IMG/VR virus record: IMGVR_UViG_3300032241_000811
Span: 32,001 to 96,000 of that record
Origin: a virus
Length of the DNA stretch: 64,000 bases
Direction: 5' to 3' (one strand)
Below, piece by piece: positions 1,497 to 11,507 of the stretch; the stretch's first letter is position 1; the number at the start of each line of letters is the position of its first letter. The position numbers and the translations under genes were made by a program. The notes under the pieces are model-generated. The model had not been told where the DNA came from. It did not search any database and saw nothing but the letters and a program-made list of their open reading frames with translations.

Positions 1497-1512
1497 GTTA
1501 TCTCCAATAAAG

Positions 1513-1604
1513 TGGCGGAATGTACTGGATTTGAACCAGTGGTACCTTTTTAGGGGTACGGCGGTTTAGCAAACCGCTGGAATAAGCCTCTCTCCCAACA
1601 TTCC
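1513..1604 (-). tRNA. tRNA-Ser(GCT)
   Basis: GCGGT-TTGCTAA-ACCGC anticodon arm, long variable arm, CCA. Confidence 0.92.
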
Positions 1605-1608
1605 ATTA

Positions 1609-2010
1609 TTATTCAAGATAAGGTATTCATTCTTCGGCGAAAGAGCAGTTCTTAGCCCCCTTGAATAGGGGTGCAATCTGTTCGTCTTTATATCCAGCCA
1701 ATCCACAACCGACACGTGTCACAAACCATTGTGTGTTTTGGTGTGATGTGATTTGGGTATACAGACAAAAGATTTCAATTGATCTAGCTATCGTTTGTAA
1801 ATCAAGTGTTTCTATACTTTGGTTTTTGGTAGCTATAGCATAACTATTTCCACAAAGACCTTGACCAGTTCCTCATACTGCACCAAACTTTTGGAGTGCC
1901 ACTTTAGCAGCGCCAGCACCATGAATGCCAGCTAGATTGCTTCCGAATACAAACACCTCCCCGTTTTGGGGAAGTGTTCCATCTCTATGGAATGTATATA
2001 GGTATGTCAT
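1609..2010 (-). pseudogene. Macro-like phage protein (FVFGSNLAG.HGAGAA family) with two in-frame TGA codons; pseudogene or UGA read-through gene
   Basis: 134-codon frame MTYLYTFHRDG...VFVFGSNLAGIHGAGAAKVALQKFGAV*GTGQG...FVTRVGCGLAGY...FAEE*IPYLE; TGA at 1873-1875 and 1627-1629. Confidence 0.8.
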
Positions 2011-2012
2011 AT

Positions 2013-2525
2013 CTAAGCTACCTTCAGCTTACGATCTTTCTTTTGTGTCATTTGCATGATAGCATCCTTGTAGCGGTCTGCACAATAACTTGCACACCAT
2101 GCGTCTGGCTTGACCATAGGAATAACATTGCACATACCGCGAATGTATCCAACAGCTTCATTGATAACACATGAAGAACCTTCCTTGAGGTCTGGGTTGA
2201 TGTCAAGATGAATCTCAACCTCGCGCTCACCGATGATGTCAACAAGCTTCAAGTATAGTTCTGCTGTCTTCATCACCTCAGTCATCAGGCGCAAACGCGG
2301 GCGATCCTTCTGCTGGTCATAGTCACGCTCACGAGTGATTTCACCAAACACACGGCAGCCGTTCTTGCCATTTATATGGACAACAACGACATTGATGTAG
2401 TCAGCATACCAAACACCATCCATCTGGAAACGCTCGGAGTCGCCACCGATGTATACCTTTGTGTCCAGCGATTGGGTGTTTAGAAATGCTGTGAGTTCGT
2501 CTAAATCTAACTTTTTGCGTAACAT
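2013..2525 (-). CDS. RNase H-like YkuK/DUF458 family protein
   Basis: YIGGDS...RLMTEV...EIHLDIN...KPDAWCASYCAD. Confidence 0.8.
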   Translation of the reverse strand: MLRKKLDLDELTAFLNTQSLDTKVYIGGDSERFQMDGVWYADYINVVVVHINGKNGCRVFGEITRERDYDQQKDRPRLRLMTEVMKTAELYLKLVDIIGEREVEIHLDINPDLKEGSSCVINEAVGYIRGMCNVIPMVKPDAWCASYCADRYKDAIMQMTQKKDRKLKVA

Positions 2526-2535
2526 GATTTTATCC

Positions 2536-2958
2536 TTAGTTTAGTTTCAGTTCTATCCTCTGTCTGAGTTCTGTGGAACTGAAACCATGGCGGCGTTTAT
2601 TGAAATAGTAATCCATATTCAGATCACTACCGGTGAAATCTTTTCCTTTGTATTCTTCACCTAGTATTCTAACATCTATTGGTAGGGTTGTCAACAGATC
2701 ATAGAGTTCCTTTTCCGTGTTATAGACAACAATCTCATCCATAAATTTGCAAGCACGGACCTGCAAAACCCTTTCTACGATTGATTGAATGGGTTTGTTC
2801 TTTTGTGGGCGATCAATGGTTGGATCAATCTGAATACCGACTATGAGCCAATCACATTGTCTTTTTGCTTCTTCAAGCATAGTCACATGACCTGTATGAA
2901 ATAAATCAAAAGCACTGCAAGTAAATCCGATTCGTTTATGTTCCATATTATACTCCAA
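2536..2958 (-). CDS. Cytidylyltransferase (TagD/glycerol-3-phosphate cytidylyltransferase-like)
   Basis: FDLFHTGH (HxGH motif), RHGFSSTELR. Confidence 0.88.
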   Translation of the reverse strand: MEYNMEHKRIGFTCSAFDLFHTGHVTMLEEAKRQCDWLIVGIQIDPTIDRPQKNKPIQSIVERVLQVRACKFMDEIVVYNTEKELYDLLTTLPIDVRILGEEYKGKDFTGSDLNMDYYFNKRRHGFSSTELRQRIELKLN

Positions 2959-2961
2959 AAG

Positions 2962-3035
2962 TGGTGCACAGAAGTAGAATCAAACTACTGTCTCCGCGTT
3001 ACGAGGGCGGCGTTATATTACTTAACTATTCGGGC
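2962..3035 (-). tRNA. Degenerate tRNA-Thr(CGT)
   Basis: CT-CGT-AA loop and CCA end; mismatched acceptor stem; 5' end overlaps the upstream ORF stop. Confidence 0.6.
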
Positions 3036-3715
3036 ATTCTTTTATGTGTTCCAAATCTTTTTCTATCTGGAAAATGGCTGGTCAAAAACATTATTAAGGG
3101 TTTAGGGTTATTCCAACCATATTCTTTAGAAAGTAATTTTGCGTTTTCACCTGATTCATATCTCTCTAAAATTGAAGATTTGTAATTTATGCGCCTTTTA
3201 CGTAGCAGTTCTTTTTCAGTTTCAATTTTTATTTTTTGAGGGTATTTCATCGACAAAGTTTTAGATATTTTCAGTTTTGTCTCGGTTGATCTAGGAATTA
3301 CTTTATTCCATGCTAATCTTGGCTTTTTTATCTTGACTTTTTGACTCTTGAGTAAACCTTTTTCTCTTAGATTTTCTCTAAGTTTTGTTCCTCCCAGTTT
3401 ACCTCTACGCTGTCTTTCTTCTTTTGTTATCGACTGATTGATGAAACCGAATCCACCGGGCCCTCCTGGACATATATTGTAGTTTGTTTCTTTATCAGGT
3501 ACAACTAAAATCTTCTCCAAAAGATTCATGTGTTTCTCATCTTTACAGTGATGAAGAATCTCTCTATGAAAGTTCTCTATTCCATGTTTCTTTATGGAAT
3601 GATTTAGTCTCTTACCTGAGCCAAAATAACCATCGTTTAGATCATTGGTTTTATGTTTGCCGATGTAATATTTTACATTCAGTAGATTGGACGTTTTATA
3701 GATGATATAGTGCAT
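3026..3715 (-). mobile_element. Free-standing GIY-YIG (Seg-like) homing endonuclease with NUMOD3-like motif
   Basis: IIYKT...YYIGKH...GYFGSG...YNI..GG.GGF; ETKLKISKTL. Confidence 0.88.
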
Positions 3716-3719
3716 TTTG

Positions 3720-3775
3720 GAAGGCTCCAGAAAATAAACCCATATAGGTTATTTATACTTCTGGAGCCTTCGATG
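3720..3775 (-). promoter_or_regulatory. Late-promoter hairpin leader copy 1 (sequesters the RBS)
   Basis: GAAGGCTCCAGAA...TTCTGGAGCCTTC inverted repeat enclosing TATAAATA (3750-3757) and ACCTATATGGG. Confidence 0.8.
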
Positions 3776-3846
3776 TGCTCCCAACAGGTACCGACCCTGT
3801 GTCTCAGCTTTACCAAAGCTGTGTACTACCTTTGTACTATGGGAGC
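3776..3846 (-). tRNA. tRNA-Thr(GGT), no encoded CCA
   Basis: CAGCT-TTGGTAA-AGCTG; GCTCCCA/TGGGAGC acceptor. Confidence 0.85.
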
Positions 3847-3986
3847 GGGCTGATTAAATCTTTCCTTGAAACCATGTTTATTTTTTCTTCCGTTAAGAGA
3901 CGCTGATATTTTTTATTGATTTCTTCTTGATTTCTCATTTGAACCTCCACACACATTTTATACTATTTATATGTGTGTGGAGGTTT
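3837..3986 (-). pseudogene. Remnant homing endonuclease with late-promoter hairpin leader
   Basis: AACCTCCACACACAT/ATGTGTGTGGAGGTT hairpin around TATAAATA; ATG at 3938; EEINKK|ISASL NUMOD-like motif broken by a frameshift in an A6 run. Confidence 0.55.
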
Positions 3987-3990
3987 ATAG

Positions 3991-4068
3991 TGGTGCGTTT
4001 GGAGGGATTCGAACCCATCACTGTACAGCTTCTAAGACTGTTGACTCCTACCGTTGGTCTACAAACGC
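3991..4068 (-). tRNA. tRNA-Leu(TAG), short variable region
   Basis: ACAGT-CTTAGAA-GCTGT, CCA. Confidence 0.85.
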
Positions 4069-4070
4069 AT

Positions 4071-4097
4071 GTGTCTCTACCGTTGGACTACGGGCCC
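4071..4097 (-). pseudogene. 5' fragment of a tRNA-Leu-like gene
   Basis: GGGCCCG-TA-GTCCAACGGTAGAGAC; D-arm resembles that of tRNA-Leu(TAA) at 7984; stops before the anticodon. Confidence 0.55.
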
Positions 4098-4103
4098 ATA
4101 AAC

Positions 4104-4178
4104 TGGTTGTCGATGATGGAATCGAACCATCGGACTTCCCCATGTCAAGGGGACGTTGTACCATTCAACTAATCGACA
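4104..4178 (-). tRNA. tRNA-Val(GAC)
   Basis: TCCCC-TTGACAT-GGGGA, CCA. Confidence 0.88.
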
Positions 4179-4179
4179 A

Positions 4180-4255
4180 TGGTAGTCCGAGAGGGATTCG
4201 AACCCCCGACATTCTGCATGTAAAGCAGACGCAGCTACCACTGTGCTACCGGACT
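4180..4255 (-). tRNA. tRNA-Val(TAC)
   Basis: TCTGC-TTTACAT-GCAGA, CCA. Confidence 0.92.
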
Positions 4256-4261
4256 ATATTC

Positions 4262-4336
4262 TGGAGCGGGCAACGGGAATCGAACCCGTGACTCAACCTT
4301 GGCAAGGTCATATGTTACCTCTAGAACCATGCCCGC
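4262..4336 (-). tRNA. tRNA-Gly(GCC)
   Basis: TT-GCC-AA loop, GCGGGCA acceptor, U73-CCA. Confidence 0.9.
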
Positions 4337-4343
4337 AATAATT

Positions 4344-4419
4344 TGGTACCTCCGCCAAGTTTCGAACTGGGTTATCGCCCTTATGAGGAGCGCACGATGT
4401 ACAACACCGTCCCGGAGGT
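4344..4419 (-). tRNA. tRNA with CAT anticodon (Met or Ile2), atypical D-arm
   Basis: CGCTC-CTCATAA-GGGCG; ACCTCCG/CGGAGGT acceptor; CCA. Confidence 0.7.
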
Positions 4420-4425
4420 ATATAG

Positions 4426-4500
4426 TGGTGCCTCAGAACGGAATTGAACCGCTGACACCATGCTCTTCAGGCAGACGCTCTACCACTGAACTACCGAGGC
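4426..4500 (-). tRNA. tRNA-Phe(GAA)
   Basis: CT-GAA-GA loop, standard D and T arms, CCA. Confidence 0.85.
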
Positions 4501-4507
4501 ATTATTT

Positions 4508-4582
4508 TGGAGCGAGTGGCCGGAATCGAACCGGTCCTCTACAGCTTGGAAGGCTGGGGCACCACCAATATACCACACTCGC
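4508..4582 (-). tRNA. tRNA-Gly(TCC)
   Basis: CAGC-CTTCCAA-GCTG, U73-CCA. Confidence 0.9.
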
Positions 4583-4590
4583 TTTATCTC

Positions 4591-4743
4591 TTATTCGTTT
4601 AGAAGCTGCTTTGTGCTTTCCTGTAGTTGCTGCTTGTTATGTTCGTCTAGTTTAGCAACATACTGTTCATTTGTCAAGCCATGCCAGCCAACGCAAAAAC
4701 CTGTTGGTGAACGACCGCAACCACATTTCTTTTTATCTGTCAT
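4591..4743 (-). CDS. Small CDGSH-like iron-sulfur protein
   Basis: CGCGRSPTGFCVGWH resembles CxCxxSxxxxxCDGSH; AAGGA RBS. Confidence 0.7.
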   Translation of the reverse strand: MTDKKKCGCGRSPTGFCVGWHGLTNEQYVAKLDEHNKQQLQESTKQLLNE

Positions 4744-4760
4744 TTTCTTTTCCTTATAGA

Positions 4761-4855
4761 TGGCGGAAGAGGTAGGATTTGAACCCACGGAACCCGATGT
4801 TAGCGGGTTCTCCGGTTTTCAAGACCGGTGCAATCAGCCACTCTGCCACTCTTCC
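4761..4855 (-). tRNA. tRNA-Ser(TGA)
   Basis: CCGGT-CTTGAAA-ACCGG, long variable arm, CCA. Confidence 0.93.
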
Positions 4856-4864
4856 TTATATATG

Positions 4865-5272
4865 TTAGTTTTTGATGATGGTTGCTTCAATCCGACAAAC
4901 GCCAGAACCAATGCAACCCAATAATACTGCGACATGTCTTGATAGGTCGATGTCTCTTCCCTTTACATAGGGGCCGCGATCATTTACGCGAACGATAACT
5001 GTCTTGCTGTTATGTTTCAATCTCAGTTTTGTTCCAAGTGGTAAAGTCTTGTGAGCAACCGTCAATGCGTTTGGGTTGAACTTTTCTCCGCTTGCGGTAA
5101 TCTTACTTCTGCTGCATTCACCTCTGTGTGCGCAGTCATACCATGATGCTCTCATATTGCTTGCTTGAGAGTCTTGTGTTGTTGTAAATATAATACTACA
5201 TATTACAAGAGTCTTTTGGATAATGCTTTTCGTTTTTATCAATATAGATACTCCTCTTTTTATGAGCATCAT
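4865..5272 (-). CDS. rlpA: RlpA-like (DPBB) lytic transglycosylase
   Basis: ASWY...TASGE.F....LT.AHKTLPLGT...VRVNDRGPYVKGRDIDLS; CATAAATA at 5303-5310; exact start uncertain. Confidence 0.88.
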   Translation of the reverse strand: MMLIKRGVSILIKTKSIIQKTLVICSIIFTTTQDSQASNMRASWYDCAHRGECSRSKITASGEKFNPNALTVAHKTLPLGTKLRLKHNSKTVIVRVNDRGPYVKGRDIDLSRHVAVLLGCIGSGVCRIEATIIKN

Positions 5273-5336
5273 TTTCTTCTTCCGAAAAAAACAATGTAGT
5301 TCTATTTATGGCATGACCAAACCCTTGATTTTTTAA

Positions 5337-5428
5337 TGGCGCGCCAGACAGGATTCGAACCTGCATCGGACATATAATCCACTCCAGTTACCTTTGTTCG
5401 CGTTCGTAGCGCGAGGGGATACTAACGC
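5337..5428 (-). ncRNA. D-armless tRNA-like RNA with Arg(ACG) anticodon arm and enlarged variable region
   Basis: GCGTTAG/CTGGCGC acceptor, 7-nt linker, TCGCG-CTACGAA-CGCGA, T-arm, CCA. Confidence 0.7.
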
Positions 5429-5432
5429 ATAT

Positions 5433-5507
5433 TGGAGGAGCAAACAGGAATTGAACCTGTATTGAGGGATTTGCAGTCCCTTGCATCAGCCATTCTGCCA
5501 TTGCTCC
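5433..5507 (-). tRNA. tRNA-Cys(GCA) copy 1
   Basis: AGGGA-CTGCAAA-TCCCT, U73-CCA. Confidence 0.92.
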
Positions 5508-5512
5508 GTTAT

Positions 5513-5587
5513 TGGCGACCCAAGTAGGACTCAAACCCACATCTCTTCGCTTTAGAGGCGACTGCATAATCACTCTGCCATTGGGTC
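5513..5587 (-). tRNA. Amber suppressor tRNA (anticodon CTA)
   Basis: GACCCAA/TTGGGTC acceptor, TCGC-CTCTAAA-GCGA anticodon arm, G73-CCA. Confidence 0.85.
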
Positions 5588-5594
5588 ATAATTC

Positions 5595-5602
5595 TATTTA
5601 TG
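5595..5602 (-). promoter_or_regulatory. Late-type promoter CATAAATA directly upstream of the suppressor tRNA
   Basis: NATAAATA ending 7 nt before the tRNA 5' end. Confidence 0.5.
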
Positions 5603-5908
5603 GTTGTTAATGATTAACAATTCATTATTTCTATAGCAGATAATATAACGTGAATCTATCCAAGCCATATGTGGATTGTTTTTCACGTGCTCCATAATCT
5701 GATTATATGTTTCAAATTTTGGACCAGGAGCACTAAACTTAGTAAATGCCAGATATTCTTGTTTCATCATCATAACTTTAATAATGCTTTATAGAAAAAA
5801 TCATTATGATACTTGTTGAAATACAGCGTATAATAATATCCAGGTTTAATAGGTTTGTTTTCTGGATATGTAAGCCACACTTCTTCTTGATTCATATTCA
5901 TTACAAAT

Positions 5909-6139
5909 TTAATTCTTGTTATCAGTTACAGTAAAACCAAGTTCAATCAAAAAAACTCTTATCTTATCAGAAACTTCATATTCTTTATTTTGTCTATATA
6001 TATCACGAATAGCATTTAATGCCGACAATAACATTGTTATTTTATGCTTTTGATTTTCTGAATACTTAGACATTATCTGAAGTTCATTCTCTAAACGATA
6101 AATTTCATACTGTAATTCATCTTTTGTTTTGTCAGACAT
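5909..6139 (-). CDS. Small protein with CysRS C-terminal anticodon-binding-like domain
   Basis: RDIYRQNKEYEVSDKIRVFLIELGFTVTD resembles R..AR..K.(W/F)..AD.IR..L...G..(L/V).D; AGGA RBS. Confidence 0.6.
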   Translation of the reverse strand: MSDKTKDELQYEIYRLENELQIMSKYSENQKHKITMLLSALNAIRDIYRQNKEYEVSDKIRVFLIELGFTVTDNKN

Positions 6140-6156
6140 AACAAATTCCTAAAAAA

Positions 6157-6231
6157 TGGAGGAGCAAACAGGAATTGAACCTGTATTGAGGGATTTGCAG
6201 TCCCTTGCATCAGCCATTCTGCCATTGCTCC
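6157..6231 (-). tRNA. tRNA-Cys(GCA) copy 2, identical to copy 1
   Basis: Exact 77-bp direct repeat of 5433-5509. Confidence 0.92.
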
Positions 6232-6239
6232 GTAAACAC

Positions 6240-6313
6240 TGGTGCTCCCACAGGGAATTGAACCCCGAATTGATGATTACAAATCAACTGTTATACCTTT
6301 TAACTATAGGAGC
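6240..6313 (-). tRNA. tRNA-Thr(TGT)
   Basis: TT-TGT-AA loop, CCA. Confidence 0.9.
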
Positions 6314-6324
6314 ATTTATAAAAT

Positions 6325-6401
6325 TGGCTGCTCGGGTAGGGATCGAACCTACGACATCCTGATTAACAGTCAGGCGCAACTACCGGCTGTGCTACCGAGC
6401 A
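6325..6401 (-). tRNA. tRNA-Asn(GTT)
   Basis: CCTGA-CTGTTAA-TCAGG, G73-CCA. Confidence 0.93.
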
Positions 6402-6461
6402 ATGAATTTCGCTCCGATTTCTTATAGTGGTTACGGCCTCCACTTATTTGCCTATGTTGTT

Positions 6462-6490
6462 ATTCTAGACTATTACACAGGCTAAGTCAA
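6462..6490 (-). promoter_or_regulatory. Sigma70-type promoter for the tRNA operon
   Basis: TTGACT-N17-TAGAAT. Confidence 0.75.
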
Positions 6491-6498
6491 GCCCTATT

Positions 6499-6572
6499 TG
6501 GCTGCCCGTCATGGAATCGAACCACTGTAACAGGTTCCACAAACCTGCGTTCTACCATTGAACTAAAACGGA
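6499..6572 (-). tRNA. Chimeric/degenerate tRNA-His(GTG)
   Basis: CAGGT-TTGTGGA-ACCTG arm, but the 3' acceptor strand ACGGGCA-G-CCA does not match the 5' strand. Confidence 0.55.
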
Positions 6573-6573
6573 G

Positions 6574-6648
6574 TGGTAGTCCCAGAGGGAATCAAACCCT
6601 CATCTCCGCCTTGAAAGGGCAGCGATCTAATCACTAATCTATGGGACC
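6574..6648 (-). tRNA. tRNA-Glu(TTC)
   Basis: CTGCC-CTTTCAA-GGCGG, CCA. Confidence 0.85.
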
Positions 6649-6654
6649 GTTGTT

Positions 6655-6731
6655 TGGATGCGGGAGGAAGATTTGCACTTCCGATCTCCGACTTATGAGG
6701 CCGGTGAGATAGTCTGCTTCTCTATCCCGCA
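6655..6731 (-). tRNA. tRNA-Met(CAT), initiator-like body
   Basis: TGCGGGA/TCCCGCA acceptor, CT-CAT-AA loop. Confidence 0.8.
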
Positions 6732-6737
6732 ATAATT

Positions 6738-6812
6738 TGGAGGACGCAATGGGATTCGAACCCATGACTTACGGTTTAAAAGACCGCTACTCTACCACTG
6801 AGTTATGCGTCC
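6738..6812 (-). tRNA. tRNA-Lys(TTT)
   Basis: GCGGT-CTTTTAA-ACCGT, CCA. Confidence 0.92.
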
Positions 6813-6816
6813 ATAA

Positions 6817-6890
6817 TGGCTGGGAGACAGGGACTCGAACCCCAATATACGGAATCAAAATCCGCAGTCCTACCATTAGACGATCTCCCA
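6817..6890 (-). tRNA. tRNA-Gln(TTG)
   Basis: GCGGA-TTTTGAT-TCCGT, U1-A72, G73-CCA. Confidence 0.92.
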
Positions 6891-6893
6891 ATA

Positions 6894-7271
6894 TTATTGT
6901 GAAAGTCTCTTTGCTTTAGCTTCTGCTGAGACTGACTCAAATAGGTTCATGTTGTCATGGACTCTCTTGACATCTTCTTCTACATTTGGATTGTAGTCTT
7001 TGAAGTTGTCGCCGTGACCGAGCAAGAGATGGCACTCTTTGTCCATGCACAAAGTAATAAGATTTGTTGGTTCAAGTTCTAATTCAGGAAACAAGTGGAA
7101 CGGCTTCTTGTGATGCACATTCAGCTTCTTGTCTGAACCGCAGCAAGCACATACTGGTTGTTCTTTTAGGTGTGCGTGTTCTACTGCTGGCCAATGAGGG
7201 CTGCGCGGCTTTTCAATGCCTGCTGCATCGTCTCTGTTGGCTGCGACTGATAAATCTTTCTTCTGTGTCAT
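6894..7271 (-). CDS. Small HNH-motif protein
   Basis: CACCG...LNVHHKKP...NLITLC...CHLLLGH. Confidence 0.8.
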   Translation of the reverse strand: MTQKKDLSVAANRDDAAGIEKPRSPHWPAVEHAHLKEQPVCACCGSDKKLNVHHKKPFHLFPELELEPTNLITLCMDKECHLLLGHGDNFKDYNPNVEEDVKRVHDNMNLFESVSAEAKAKRLSQ

Positions 7272-7307
7272 ATCAATACTCCTTGGTTGACGGAGTATTT
7301 ATGAAAT

Positions 7308-7352
7308 TGGTACTAGCGGGTGGGATCGAACCACCTACCACACGGTTATCAG
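7308..7352 (-). pseudogene. 3' half of tRNA-Ile(GAT)
   Basis: CTGATAA loop, T-arm and ACCA present; 5' half missing. Confidence 0.75.
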
Positions 7353-7419
7353 TTTGATGTTTACCTATGTAGAATTTTTGATTTATTTTGTTAGTAATAT
7401 GATAGATAGTGTAGAACAT
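7345..7419 (-). pseudogene. Truncated GIY-YIG endonuclease (first ~25 codons)
   Basis: MFYTIYHITNKINQKFYIGKHQTDN, paralogous to the N-terminus of 3026-3715, fused to the tRNA half. Confidence 0.8.
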
Positions 7420-7423
7420 TTAG

Positions 7424-7478
7424 AGAATCCGATTTGTATAAGCCCATATAGGTTATTTATACAAATCGGATTCTGATG
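7424..7478 (-). promoter_or_regulatory. Late-promoter hairpin leader copy 2
   Basis: AGAATCCGATTTGTATAA/TTATACAAATCGGATTCT with TATAAATAACCTATATGGG. Confidence 0.8.
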
Positions 7479-7554
7479 TCAGCGTAGATGGATTTGAACC
7501 ATCGGTCTCCTGCTCCCAAGGCAGGCGGATTAAACCATACTTTCCCACACGCTG
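7479..7554 (-). tRNA. tRNA-Pro(TGG), no encoded CCA
   Basis: CCTGC-CTTGGGA-GCAGG; C1-G72. Confidence 0.88.
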
Positions 7555-7560
7555 TTATTC

Positions 7561-7604
7561 TGGCGACCCATAGCGGTTACGATCCGCTGACACATCTTAG
7601 ACAG
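7561..7604 (-). pseudogene. 3' half of tRNA-Asp(GTC)
   Basis: CTGTCTA loop, T-arm and TGGGTC-GCCA end; 5' half missing. Confidence 0.7.
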
Positions 7605-7605
7605 A

Positions 7606-7661
7606 GAAGCCTCCGAATACTAAACCCATATAGGTTATTTAGTAAACGGAGGACTTCAATG
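7606..7661 (-). promoter_or_regulatory. Late-promoter hairpin leader copy 3 (downstream ORF deleted)
   Basis: GAAGTCCTCCG...CGGAGGCTTC around CTAAATAACCTATATGGG. Confidence 0.75.
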
Positions 7662-7750
7662 TAGGCGTGTAGGGACTCGAACCCTAGCGAGAACACCGAT
7701 CTAGTGCTAAAGGGATTATAAGGCCCTCCGGTATACCTATACTCACGCCT
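7662..7750 (-). tRNA. Atypical tRNA with TAT anticodon, tetraloop D-arm and long variable arm
   Basis: AGGCGTG/CACGCCT acceptor, GTAT-AGGT-ATAC D-arm, CTTATAA loop, AGCACT/GGTGTT extra arm, T-arm. Confidence 0.65.
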
Positions 7751-7758
7751 TTATTTGT

Positions 7759-7944
7759 TTACAACACCTTGGCAATCAGCCAGAGAATACCTACAACAAG
7801 AATAATCACAATCAAGATGACGGGAATAGCCCAGAAAGGCGCAAGAACCCACCACCAAGACCAGTCAATATAACCCATAAGCTTCAACACAATGAACACA
7901 ATACCCAATGTGCTGAGAAAACCAGGTCCTACTTGAACGCTCAC
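7759..7944 (-). CDS. Small membrane protein (IDWSWWWVLAP type)
   Basis: Two hydrophobic helices and a motif common in phage membrane proteins. Confidence 0.75.
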   Translation of the reverse strand: MSVQVGPGFLSTLGIVFIVLKLMGYIDWSWWWVLAPFWAIPVILIVIILVVGILWLIAKVL

Positions 7945-7983
7945 ATTCTTATCTATGACAATATATCCTTTTCAAAACATTTT

Positions 7984-8059
7984 TGGTAGCCGCTGTGGGA
8001 CTCGAACCCACCCTTGGACGATTTTAAGTCGTCTGTCTCTACCACTGGACTAAGCGGCC
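7984..8059 (-). tRNA. tRNA-Leu(TAA), short variable loop
   Basis: GACGA-CTTAAAA-TCGTC, CCA. Confidence 0.88.
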
Positions 8060-8066
8060 GATATTC

Positions 8067-8143
8067 TGGCGGTCCCGGAGGGATTCGAACCCCCAACTCG
8101 CCGCTTAGAAGGCGGCTGCTCTATCCAGTTGAACTACGGAACC
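8067..8143 (-). tRNA. tRNA-Arg(TCT)
   Basis: GCCGC-CTTCTAA-GCGGC, CCA. Confidence 0.93.
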
Positions 8144-8153
8144 AATAATCTAT

Positions 8154-8357
8154 TTATATAGTTGCAGCAACATCCTTATAGAAGGCTTCAATAAACTTAC
8201 CATCAAGAAACTTTTCGCCCGTCTCAGCAGCCTTAACATAGTCCACAAAGAATAGCTTGTGTATGATAGCATCATCTTCATAGCATGTCAAGTCAAAACC
8301 AATCGGGTCTCCGATATGCAACTCGATATCATACGAACGGTGGCGTGAAAGCATCAT
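8154..8357 (-). CDS. Hypothetical protein
   Basis: ORF in the gene-dense minus-strand run. Confidence 0.55.
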   Translation of the reverse strand: MMLSRHRSYDIELHIGDPIGFDLTCYEDDAIIHKLFFVDYVKAAETGEKFLDGKFIEAFYKDVAATI

Positions 8358-8362
8358 GGTCG

Positions 8363-8812
8363 TTAAGCTGCCTTTTTATTGGTTGTAACACTCGCAACAT
8401 GCTTGCACATTTTGCGAAACTGAAAGCCCAGACAGTCACACGAATAATGCCGGGTTGTTCCATCATAAGTAACAGTGTAAGTCTTTTCTGGCGTCTTGCG
8501 CGATGCAGACTTCACGACCCATGACTTGAGAACAGGCAAATCTTCCTTTACTTTCTCAGCTTTTGTATTGTCATCATACACTATATCTACTACTGTGTCA
8601 AGAGATACCACTGAATGCGGAAAATTAGGATTGCCAGTCGATAGACGAAAAGTATTTGGGCTATCAAGCTTACCACGATCAACAACAATTCCGCGCTTGA
8701 CGCTAATGCGTTCCACATTCTGACTATAACCTTTCATCAACTTTGACCAATCGGAAGTCACGGTAATGCGAGAACCGACCTTGGGTGCTTGAAAAACAAA
8801 AGACTTATTCAT
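8363..8812 (-). CDS. SWIM zinc-finger protein
   Basis: YTVT...YSCDCLGFQFRKMCKHV. Confidence 0.8.
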   Translation of the reverse strand: MNKSFVFQAPKVGSRITVTSDWSKLMKGYSQNVERISVKRGIVVDRGKLDSPNTFRLSTGNPNFPHSVVSLDTVVDIVYDDNTKAEKVKEDLPVLKSWVVKSASRKTPEKTYTVTYDGTTRHYSCDCLGFQFRKMCKHVASVTTNKKAA

Positions 8813-9000
8813 TCCGCTTCCCGAACAATTTCAAATCCATTTTTGAACTCACCATCAAGAAAGCGGATGCCATAAGCAACAGCCTTGTCCTCGGTCTTAA
8901 AGCGATCTTGCCAAACACAATCATCATCCTCAAAACAGAACAGATTGTACATGCCGCTGTGATCTTCATCTTTTTCTACAATAGTATAGCGATAACCCAT
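8809..9000 (-). CDS. Hypothetical protein
   Basis: ORF with GAGGA RBS, overlaps the next gene. Confidence 0.55.
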   Translation of the reverse strand: MGYRYTIVEKDEDHSGMYNLFCFEDDDCVWQDRFKTEDKAVAYGIRFLDGEFKNGFEIVREAE

Positions 9001-9058
9001 ATCTTTTCCTCATCAATACGTATATTATAACACAATAACCTTTGGAAAGCAAGGCATA

Positions 9059-9520
9059 TTAGCCCCGCTTCTTTTGAGCAAGTGACAGCTTATAAAGCTG
9101 AGACAAGGCACGTTCGGTTCCATTGGCTTCAATTTCCCAAGGGTAGAACAAATAGTTGATCAGCTTATCACTCAGCTTCCACTTCTTACCCATCCAGTAT
9201 GCGGTATGAATGTCATGTTCCTTCAGTTCCTTTCGCGCATACTGCTTTACGTGTACCATCTCATGTGCTAGAACCTTGAGTTGCTTTGCACGGCTCATCT
9301 TGGGGTTGATTGAAACTTCAAATACACGTGACCCGTGGCGCCCCTCATCTACAGCAAAACAATGCCCATCAGCCATGCCATCCTTTTCAAATGTCAGCAT
9401 GATGTCAAGGTTCTGGCTCAGCTTGGGGCCCAACAGGGCTTCAGCGTAGAACTTGACGGCGTGCTTTGTTTCGCGGCGCGTCAGAGCGCCTGGCTTTCCA
9501 AATATATCAATGTTGATCAT
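9059..9520 (-). CDS. Zinc metallopeptidase-like protein (HExxH)
   Basis: LAHEMVHVKQY...PWEIEA. Confidence 0.8.
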   Translation of the reverse strand: MINIDIFGKPGALTRRETKHAVKFYAEALLGPKLSQNLDIMLTFEKDGMADGHCFAVDEGRHGSRVFEVSINPKMSRAKQLKVLAHEMVHVKQYARKELKEHDIHTAYWMGKKWKLSDKLINYLFYPWEIEANGTERALSQLYKLSLAQKKRG

Positions 9521-9711
9521 TACCGAACCGCCGGAGAAACACTATAACTTGTAATCATATAGTCCTTATCATTTTGCCACTTGGTATTCAAGATATACTT
9601 GACTAGCTTTTCCTCAGCATTCTTGTAGTCCTTGGCAATGATGCGAAGATAAATCATCTTATCCCAAGGCATCAAGGTTCTTGCTATTCATACTAAAGTC
9701 CTTTCATCAAG

Positions 9712-9845
9712 TTATGCCTTCTTATAGCATAGCTGGACCTATGCCGCAAGCGCAAAATGCGAATGCCTGCTATGCAGTTTATGCAAGGCAGGCAGCTGGC
9801 TAAGTCATTGATTTTATTGGGATTTTAGGAACCCCTTGATTTCAT
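9712..9845 (-). promoter_or_regulatory. Early promoter copy A with IHF-consensus site
   Basis: TTGCGG-N17-TATAAG; AATCAATGACTTA at 9801-9813; similar to 41016-41140. Confidence 0.65.
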
Positions 9846-9867
9846 TGAGTTTTATCTTCTGGTTGTA

Positions 9868-10098
9868 TCAGACCAATAGACTAAACTCCTGGTTGATGTT
9901 GTCAAGGTCCACATGGTTCGTCTTGCGTATCATGAAAGCAGGTGTCCAACCTGAGAAGGCCCCACCGTTGGTGAGAAACTTCACATAATCATGTGCAGCA
10001 TCTTCATAAAAAAAGGACGCAATCGTATGCAGCGTGGTGTGTTCCACTACATCCCAAGTGAAGTCTGTTTCATCCAGAACTACTGTATATTTTGTCAT
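9868..10098 (-). CDS. Hypothetical T4-like phage protein
   Basis: Coupled to gp41; GGAFSGWTPAF motif. Confidence 0.65.
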   Translation of the reverse strand: MTKYTVVLDETDFTWDVVEHTTLHTIASFFYEDAAHDYVKFLTNGGAFSGWTPAFMIRKTNHVDLDNINQEFSLLV

Positions 10099-11507
10099 GC
10101 TACTTTGATTCCTTTGAACTTGTCTCTGTTATTGGTATCATTATTCTTTCCAGTAAATGTTTGTTTACCAGAAACCGGTATAGTTTGCTGCCCACTGTCA
10201 ACAATGTTTTGTGCCGATGCTTCCACATCATATAGCTTCATCTTAGCACGATTGATGCCCAGAACAAATCTCTTGTTGACGTTGGGATCATTATATCTGT
10301 TCTTGAGTTGCTTCACCATGATCTGCCCCAATTTGTCAAGGTTCTCATTTGCGATAAGCGCAAACATGAAGTCAGCAGTTGCAGGCAATCCAAACGATTC
10401 AGAAGTATCTTCAAGCCCCACATCAGTTGATACAAAGCCTGTTCTGTTTGTCTGAGTTGCTGTCAATAGAGGCACTTCGGCTTCAACCGCAAGCCCTCTG
10501 AGTTCTTCTGCAATAGCCTTCACATAGGTATATGAGTTGCCCCCTTCACCAGCACGAATACGAGATGAACAGCAAATGTTCAGATAGTCAATGATCATGA
10601 CATCTGGTTTGAACTTCTTCTTGAGATGCAGTTCGTTCAGCAAAGCCTTGAAGTGAATGGAGCCTGCACTGGCCGTTGGATACTCTTTGACGATCAGTTT
10701 TCCATTGCTCTTGGACTTTAGCTTTTCAGCTTTAGTCTTATACATATCTTTTGGCATGTTCATCAAATCATCAAAAGTCACATTCATCAGATTTGCGTCA
10801 ATGCGCTTAGCCACTTCTTCTTCTGCAAGTTCTAGTGTGATATACAACACATTCTTACCTTGATTGATAAGAGAAGCAGCATAGTGACACATAAAAAGAG
10901 ATTTACCAACACCAGTACCAGCAAGGGCAACATTCAAAGTTTTCTTGGGCAATCCGCCTTTTGTAATCTTGTTGAAAAACTCCAAGTCAAACGGCAGACG
11001 TTCTTCCACACGATGATAGTAATCATAACGCTTGTCATATTGCTCAAAGTAATCATGACCAACATTTGGATCAAATGAAACTGCAAGCGCATCTGAAAGT
11101 ATCTTGGGAATGGCACCTGTAGTCAAGGCGCCACCCTTCTTGTCCATAATCTCAATAGACTTCATGATTGCATGATACAGAGCCTTATCTTGACAGAACT
11201 TTTCAGTTGTGTCAATCAGCCAATCTTCATTGGTAGGCTCATCTTGCGCCTTGAAGTCATTGATGGCCGCTGTGATACTCTTGACTTGATCATCCTTGAG
11301 GTTACGCAAGGAATCAATTTCAATCAACAGTGCATCAGTTGTAGGAGGCTTATTATACTTGAGGATAAATTCCTTGATTTCATTGAATAGAACTTTTTCA
11401 TTCTCATCAGTGAAATACTCAATCTTTATGAAAGGCAATACTCTGCGAGTGTAGCTTTCATTCCTCAGTAACGACTTGAGTATCGTCTTTTCCAGACTTG
11501 TTTGCAT
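10095..11507 (-). CDS. 41: Replicative DNA helicase (T4 gp41)
   Basis: AGTGVGKSLFMC Walker A, IDYLNI, TATQTNR, SESFGLPATAD. Confidence 0.97.
   Translation of the reverse strand: MQTSLEKTILKSLLRNESYTRRVLPFIKIEYFTDENEKVLFNEIKEFILKYNKPPTTDALLIEIDSLRNLKDDQVKSITAAINDFKAQDEPTNEDWLIDTTEKFCQDKALYHAIMKSIEIMDKKGGALTTGAIPKILSDALAVSFDPNVGHDYFEQYDKRYDYYHRVEERLPFDLEFFNKITKGGLPKKTLNVALAGTGVGKSLFMCHYAASLINQGKNVLYITLELAEEEVAKRIDANLMNVTFDDLMNMPKDMYKTKAEKLKSKSNGKLIVKEYPTASAGSIHFKALLNELHLKKKFKPDVMIIDYLNICCSSRIRAGEGGNSYTYVKAIAEELRGLAVEAEVPLLTATQTNRTGFVSTDVGLEDTSESFGLPATADFMFALIANENLDKLGQIMVKQLKNRYNDPNVNKRFVLGINRAKMKLYDVEASAQNIVDSGQQTIPVSGKQTFTGKNNDTNNRDKFKGIKVA

Follow-up and report, generated by a model that had tools for sequence, protein, structure and literature searches.

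Introduction

Free-standing paralogues of synthetase domains include proteins of the Trbp111/Arc1p type, the YbaK/AlaX editing domains and proteins that NCBI names 'CysS/YqeB C-terminal domain-containing protein'. Their shared principle is that an accessory domain of an aminoacyl-tRNA synthetase becomes an independent, tRNA-directed protein. These paralogues are cellular, and most have either a demonstrated activity or a non-specific affinity for tRNA structure. The phage gene described here, ORF76, follows the same principle, but it is viral and its product would be specific for an anticodon. To our knowledge, almost all of the small proteins encoded among phage tRNAs are unexplained, and ORF76 is a case in which a precise and testable ligand can be assigned to one of them.

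The domain concerned is the C-terminal domain of cysteinyl-tRNA synthetase (CysRS; PF23493, residues 403-461 of the E. coli enzyme, PDB 1U0B). According to PMC12684709 (citing Hauenstein et al. 2004), R427 and D436 hydrogen-bond to the anticodon base G34 in the solved structure of the E. coli CysRS-tRNACys complex, W432 stacks on this base, and a network of water molecules links it with D436 and R423. Replacement of G34 lowers CysRS activity more than 1000-fold, and acceptance of a CUA anticodon by CysRS needed mutation of R427, W432, D436 and R439 (PMC13449415).

Defences that target tRNA, and phage tRNA counter-measures against them, are established (PMC10264068, PMC11464382), with examples in the tRNA-Lys of phage T5, which acts against PARIS, and in tRNAs of mycobacteriophages whose anticodon loops are altered (PMC11464382, PMC10264068). 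Clusters of tRNA genes in phages have come to be regarded as weapons against tRNA-cutting host defences. ORF76 shares this arena, namely a phage tRNA cluster and host nucleases that attack anticodon loops. The known phage counter-measures are, however, replacement tRNAs or RNA repair enzymes, and in the literature that we searched we found neither an anticodon-capping protein nor a description of a protein like ORF76. ORF76 is a new form of a known domain, CysS_C. Should its product bind tRNA-Cys, we would have no earlier example in our searches of a viral protein in which the recognition domain of a synthetase serves as a non-catalytic tRNA binder with anticodon specificity, and isoacceptor-specific tRNA capture would gain a compact module of natural origin. 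Without such binding, ORF76 is one further sporadic accessory domain.

Results and discussion

ORF76 lies in an islet between duplicated tRNA-Cys genes

We analysed a 64,000-nt window (the whole stretch of DNA under study), which forms part of a 109,580-bp IMG/VR virus record. Judged by its genes, the record belongs to a myovirus of the T4-like kind. Its portal protein shares 53% identity with the portal proteins of T4-like cyanophages, and the window further codes for a gp43-type polymerase, a gp41-type helicase, a gp46-like SbcC protein and a prohead scaffold. An array of 24 tRNA genes, identified with ARAGORN and Rfam and found on the minus strand throughout, extends from about 1500 to 8150, with GIY-YIG and HNH homing-endonuclease genes scattered through it.

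Within this array, two tRNA-Cys(GCA) genes bracket a short islet. Copy 2 (6157-6231, minus strand; ARAGORN, Rfam tRNA 64.7 bits) adjoins ORF76 on its upstream side, and copy 1 (5433-5507, minus strand; ARAGORN, Rfam and the repeat itself) forms the islet's closing end. In the metagenome assembly the tRNA-Cys repeats are exact 77-nt duplicates standing 724 nt apart, the one at copy 1 covering 5433-5509. Between the two tRNA-Cys copies lie, in the order of transcription, ORF76 (5909-6139 with its stop codon, minus strand; 76 aa), a 43-aa ORF with no family match (ORF43; 5770-5901, minus strand), a 59-aa ORF with neither a family nor a phage match (ORF59; 5594-5773, minus strand) and a tRNA of the amber-suppressor type with anticodon CUA (5513-5587, minus strand; ARAGORN), the two smaller ORFs being taken from the ORF list. 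The first-pass annotation had placed the gene directly downstream of tRNA-Cys copy 2 and inside a duplicated islet, and the exact 77-nt repeat bears this out, as does the gap of 17 nt between the 3' end of copy 2 and the ATG of ORF76. Its statement of the discriminator bases was likewise correct, with G73 in the CUA tRNA (which ends ...TTGGGTC-G-CCA) and U73 in tRNA-Cys. The gap holds an AGGA site resembling a Shine-Dalgarno sequence, 7 nt 5' of the ATG (6147-6150, minus strand; read from the sequence).

The part of the islet outside its tRNAs (5588-6156) has a G+C content of 26.7%, against 41.2% for the window, and we therefore take the islet to be acquired DNA; a GIY-YIG homing-endonuclease gene, at 32.9%, lies above it. 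The three small ORFs of the islet all look horizontally acquired. A search of 5200-6500 gave no terminator-like site and, for promoters, only weak sigma-70-like matches on the minus strand (6490-6462 and 5620-5591), no more than are obtained from shuffled sequence. Thus, the simplest reading of the sequence is that ORF76 is co-transcribed with the tRNA array. T4-type late-promoter boxes lie farther upstream of the islet on the same strand.

The ORF76 protein is related to the C-terminal domain of CysRS

Searches with the single ORF76 sequence led to the C-terminus of CysRS. In the PDB the best match was 6ujd, residues 437-486 (E 0.098), and in TIGR00435 (cysS) positions 383-459 of 466 were matched at E 0.0054. 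When the whole 109,580-bp record was scanned with TIGR00435, ORF76 gave the sole cysS-like match (positions 381-459). A profile of four family members (see below), run against the PDB with hmmsearch, had CysRS C-termini as its best three matches (E 1e-5, 3.6e-5 and 0.14); a PDB search with a wider alignment reached E 8.8e-11, a value that is not independent, that alignment itself holding six CysRS C-termini. The cleanest test set the profile of the six-member family against one built independently from 16 CysRS C-termini, that of E. coli among them; hhalign aligned the two over 49 columns with a probability of 95.7% and E 8.8e-9. Residues 26-76 of ORF76 correspond to residues 408-456 of E. coli CysRS, and the protein is collinear with the last ~80 positions of the cysS model. 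In a metagenome scan the four-member profile recovered full-length CysRS genes, aligned to query residues 9-76. An exhaustive phmmer search of 1.8 billion representatives matched two eukaryote-like proteins (E 5e-5 and 1e-4) that carry four to five significant Pfam CysS_C repeats, and the neighbours of ORF76 in the ESM Atlas include small viral clusters with PF23493 as well as CysRS itself. The resemblance to CysRS far exceeds chance.

The relationship is a distant one. The PF23493 HMM found no match to ORF76 at E<=1, nor any in the record at E<=10, and the best score of any family member against it is 15.3 bits (E 0.023), for the homologue P0003, where the gathering threshold is 23 bits; ORF76 is thus a divergent relative of the domain and not a textbook member. 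Scans of ORF76 against Pfam, PHROG and PADLOC returned only weak coiled-coil noise. Against TIGR00435 the score of ORF76 is 13.8-15.9 bits, spread over the C-terminal 80 positions, where membership of the enzyme family takes at least 340 bits, and the class I catalytic Rossmann domain (HIGH/KMSKS) is absent from the 76 residues.

The first-pass annotation had read a CysRS C-terminal anticodon-binding pattern in the protein and had proposed profile and Foldseek comparisons with that domain. The profile-profile and PDB matches given above confirm the pattern. Its further claim that a catalytic domain is lacking holds as well, since ORF76 has 76 aa and is the only cysS-like match in the record. 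The Foldseek comparison did not follow suit, there being no match in the PDB at E<=0.001 with either a single-sequence or an alignment-based model, and a wide VIA-align search returned only generic long-helix and coiled-coil matches (Z<=7). We consider both searches uninformative, because the fold of ORF76 is too small and too helical for them. In the ESM Atlas, the structure search reached CysS_C and CysRS clusters with TM values, by query, of 0.55-0.75.

Compared with CysRS, ORF76 shares the helix-loop-helix-strand order (in its model), the residues that read G34 and the invariant residues of the core. It differs in lacking the Rossmann catalytic domain, the DALR_2/stem-contact domain and the last strand, in standing alone at 76 aa, and in the helix before the domain, which is extended into a predicted dimeric coiled coil.

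A small family with many invariant positions

In the exhaustive phmmer search the small homologues were P0003 (75 aa), P0004 (89 aa) and P0007 (93 aa); two more, P0008 (84 aa) and P0009 (78 aa), came from looking up clusters and from searching with a profile. These five metagenomic proteins of 75-93 aa are 36-49% identical to ORF76, and JGI names three of them (P0007, P0008 and P0009) 'cysteinyl-tRNA synthetase'. Across the six-member family 22 positions are invariant. They include a heptad series of hydrophobic residues (L9, I34, L37, L41 and I44) and the motif I-R-x3-R-x2-K-x-Y-x-V-x-D-x2-R-x2-L-x3-G-x2-V-x-D. With six sequences among ~15 billion proteins, this is a very rare family. We found no homologue among GenBank phages, none in IMG/VR when it was searched with the single ORF76 protein, and no such gene in 80 gp41 neighbourhoods of related phages; a search with the DPBB protein that neighbours ORF76 gave no close relative.

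Such rarity raises the question of whether ORF76 is an inert remnant, either the decaying 3' end of a captured cysS or a chimeric product of assembly. The islet is AT-rich and foreign-looking, and in the metagenome assembly exact repeats stand on either side of it; both features, like the tiny family, would suit such an origin. However, the homologues are similar in length and have start codons of their own, and 22 positions, the heptad pattern and the recognition residues among them, are kept despite 36-49% identity. This pattern of invariance, with matching lengths and separate start codons, indicates purifying selection on a stand-alone protein, to which a gene fragment does not fit. The ribosome-binding site and the confident predicted fold (pLDDT 89.9) also speak against a remnant, as does the DNA upstream of ORF76, which has no cysS-like sequence and in which a tRNA abuts the start. 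We consider a remnant very unlikely, and on these sequence features ORF76 is a real gene.

The residues that read G34 are retained

Residues 45-73 of ORF76 (5921-6007, minus strand) form a CysS_C-type anticodon-recognition core, as delimited by alignment with E. coli CysRS and by hhalign. In this alignment R45 of ORF76 is equivalent to R423 of the E. coli enzyme, R49 to R427, K52 to K430, D58 to D436, R61 to R439, L64 to L442, G68 to G446 and D73 to D451, and Y54 takes the place of W432, a Tyr for a Trp. All nine of these ORF76 residues are invariant in the six family members, and R423, K430, D436, R439, L442, G446 and D451 are invariant in the 16 CysRS. As far as the alignment tells, therefore, every residue reported to read G34 is kept in the ORF76 family in the wild-type, G34-reading state, with Tyr for Trp. 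With these contact residues retained, tRNA-Cys(GCA) is a reasonable candidate ligand.

The last strand of the domain, which in E. coli holds G455 and W458 and is nearly invariant in CysRS, is absent, and ORF76 ends three residues past D73. Some genuine CysRS enzymes of marine Flavobacteriaceae likewise lack this strand and have the same end point, and they share the motif K-N-Y-E-V-S-D exactly. The shared motif and the missing strand may hint at Flavobacteriaceae as the donor lineage.

The retained residues also bear on whether ORF76 might bind or escort the neighbouring CUA tRNA, aiding its charging or protection as part of a suppression module. The first-pass annotation had offered this tRNA as an alternative ligand. 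Both genes lie in one 724-nt islet between identical copies of tRNA-Cys, and the CUA tRNA (short variable arm, G73, Rfam 52.1 bits) resembles the phage tRNA-Cys in its D-arm. Only the D-arm does so, however; over its whole length this tRNA is closest to tRNA-Glu (71%). The residues that had to be mutated before CysRS accepted CUA are those that read G34, and ORF76 keeps the equivalents of Asp436, Arg427 and aromatic 432, where in CysRS a change of G34 costs more than 1000-fold in activity (PMC13449415). This argues against the CUA tRNA as a ligand. Nor does the coding strand suggest a use for suppression: among the 69 ORFs that reach 100 aa or more, 12 end in TAG, with only short in-frame extensions downstream, and TAG is thus a normal stop. 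A role with the CUA tRNA is in our view highly improbable. On the same count of stop codons, genome-wide recoding of TAG was rejected.

The N-terminal helix is predicted to form a parallel homodimer

AlphaFold2, given an alignment of 13 rows, modelled ORF76 with a pLDDT of 89.9 as a helix over residues 3-50, a turn, a second helix over residues 54-66 and an extended tail. The coiled-coil-like helix that the first-pass annotation had seen ahead of the CysRS-like domain thus appears in the model. An exposed helix of 50 residues would need a partner, and we modelled the homodimer with ESMFold2, which gave an ipSAE of 0.58, where the highest-scoring of three controls had 0.32. Among proteins solved as one-chain pairs, 20 of 30 attained a score of 0.58, as did one of 23 solved as single chains; these counts apply only roughly, because the alignment used was our own. 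At least 95% of contacts agreed between homodimer runs, and the pLDDT of the partner was at least 83.

The predicted contacts lie within residues 5-44 and are in register (13-13, 16-16, 30-30, 34-34, 37-37 and 41-41), which implies a parallel coiled coil over these residues, and the residues of the predicted interface are the invariant hydrophobics L9, I34, L37, L41 and I44. Combining the AlphaFold2 and homodimer models, we assign residues 3-44 (6008-6133, minus strand) to a predicted parallel, in-register homodimeric coiled coil. ORF76 is thus probably a parallel homodimer, an arrangement that would place its two recognition heads next to each other.

No tRNA genes in the fetched surroundings of other viral CysS_C genes

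In IMG/VR, a degenerate DNA pattern representing the CysS_C motif matched mostly full-length cysS, but also ten small ORFs of 51-178 aa, at least six of which are clearly complete stand-alone proteins (L101, 75 aa; L120, 62 aa; L133, 51 aa; L137, 83 aa; L145, 61 aa; L161, 64 aa). A profile that included the E. coli sequence was rejected as a means of searching for stand-alone proteins, since it returned mostly enterobacterial cysS fragments. Like ORF76, the other phage stand-alone CysS_C proteins, among them the 61-64 aa PF23493 clusters of the ESM Atlas, are small, non-catalytic, sporadic accessory genes. Unlike ORF76, they carry the motif in its canonical form, K-D-[WFY]-x-x-A-D, and as a rule also the closing G-x-x-W strand, their N-termini are short and without a conserved coiled coil, and no tRNA occurs in the DNA fetched around them.

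The neighbours of these genes differ from locus to locus and include a P22-type portal, a tail fibre protein, enzymes of sugar metabolism (TPP and epimerase) and a methyltransferase; tRNA genes were found at none of the ten loci (1.4-13 kb fetched). A closer relative is a 92-aa viral protein encoded on a 180-kb viral contig (L002, 5860-6138, plus strand) and also found on L011 and L016. Its N-terminus is Cys-rich and zinc-ribbon-like, and its CysS_C-like core, K-N-Y-E-V-S-D-x-I-R, has lost the equivalent of R427. Its gene on L002 lies directly upstream of a 287-aa ORF, read as primase-like without a family scan, and there is no tRNA within 6 kb of genes of this type. No neighbour is common to the ten loci and the 92-aa relative. 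It follows that linkage to tRNA is not a rule for phage CysS_C genes in general. The first-pass annotation had suggested a protein-tRNA module, to be recognised by co-occurrence with tRNA-Cys or suppressor tRNAs. No tRNA of any kind was found at the ten viral CysS_C loci or at the L002-type loci, which goes against a conserved module for the loci counted, the loci of the five closest homologues (P0003, P0004, P0007, P0008 and P0009) standing outside the count.

These loci are one argument for reading ORF76 as a generic adaptor, whose CysS_C-like head would bind some other RNA, host CysRS or a host factor and whose place in a tRNA cluster would be incidental. Viral relatives without tRNA genes, beside a portal, sugar-metabolism genes, a methyltransferase or a primase-like ORF, are in keeping with such a role, as is the existence of CysS_C proteins with tandem repeats. 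The tRNA regions of T4-like phages are, moreover, peppered with small accessory ORFs and homing-endonuclease genes, and the cluster around ORF76 itself carries GIY-YIG and HNH genes. Had anticodon reading been abandoned, however, it would be unexpected to find all of the G34-contacting residues invariant in the family, and the 92-aa relative, with its lost R427 equivalent, illustrates the drift that would otherwise occur. We regard a generic adaptor as possible but unlikely.

The tandem-repeat proteins, P0005 (470 aa) and P0006 (450 aa), are eukaryote-like, low-complexity sequences from Logan assemblies in which four to five CysS_C repeats stand in tandem, with a conserved D-D-K-[ST]-H-T-[FW] motif after each. 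They suggest that this fold is able to work with partners of other kinds, whether RNA or protein. A further group of matches, L105-L187, comprises many IMG/VR contigs of ~43 kb, with dozens of predicted proviruses that carry a near-identical full-length cysS, the motif standing at position 1321 from one contig end. Here cysS is probably host DNA at the edge of the prophage call, from a prophage family integrated beside cysS.

A possible role in binding tRNA-Cys

With the G34-reading residues kept and no catalytic domain present, the most likely reading is that ORF76 binds the anticodon loop of tRNA-Cys(GCA) without charging it. Stated in full, we propose that ORF76 is a putatively expressed phage accessory gene, whose product would be the last ~70 residues of CysRS made into an independent protein. 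The gene would derive from a cysS 3' end and may have entered the phage with the AT-rich islet, which looks horizontally acquired and has the same tRNA-Cys gene on both sides. The helix of residues 3-44 would pair with that of a second copy in a parallel coiled coil, and residues 45-73 would provide the core of the anticodon-binding domain found at the C-terminus of CysRS, with its helix-turn-helix-strand order. The dimer would then hold the anticodon loop of a tRNA-Cys(GCA) that is either host-encoded or made from the two phage copies. We put the probability that ORF76 is a dimeric, non-catalytic binder of the tRNA-Cys anticodon loop at roughly 0.45. An isolated recognition head of ~30 residues may be too weak a binder to matter.

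The most plausible consequence of such binding would be that the anticodon loop of tRNA-Cys is covered, or that tRNA-Cys is titrated, during infection. Covering could shield the loop from an anticodon-directed nuclease or modifier, and titration could buffer a tRNA-Cys pool enlarged by the duplicated phage gene; either role, like a third one as a chaperone of tRNA-Cys, is speculative. The specific proposal of an 'anticodon cap', in which the dimer covers the GCA loop against a host anticodon nuclease or modifier, or else holds a reserve pool, with the duplicated tRNA-Cys supplying the ligand, we consider quite unlikely as it stands.

Other features of the tRNA array and its surroundings

The T4 late-promoter box TATAAATA occurs nine times in the window, where 2.3 copies are expected by chance (1261, 3750, 3964, 7454, 8151, 30151, 53157, 54577 and 62374, all on the minus, coding strand), and five of the nine lie in or adjoin the tRNA array.

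Directly upstream of the window, at 5201-10689 of the fetched stretch L188 (25201-30689 of the record), a 1052-aa protein is encoded that combines a cytidylyltransferase-like domain with a P-loop kinase domain of the AAA_33/zeta-toxin type. It is followed by a 366-aa ORF without a family match and then by a 393-aa DUF6267 protein. If this block serves RNA repair, it would suit selection by tRNA-targeting defences.

Directly downstream of tRNA-Cys copy 1 is a tRNA-like element (5334-5430, minus strand) that is called by neither of the two tRNA searches, ARAGORN and Rfam. Its tRNA-like features are an acceptor-like stem of 7 bp, a T-arm (GGTTCGAATCC), a discriminator G and an encoded CCA; it also contains a long insert and lacks a normal D-arm, and its predicted fold is no better than that of shuffled sequence. 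The element is 77-81% identical to unannotated DNA of the Xanthomonas phages BUDD and X1, and it may be a degenerate or unusual tRNA.
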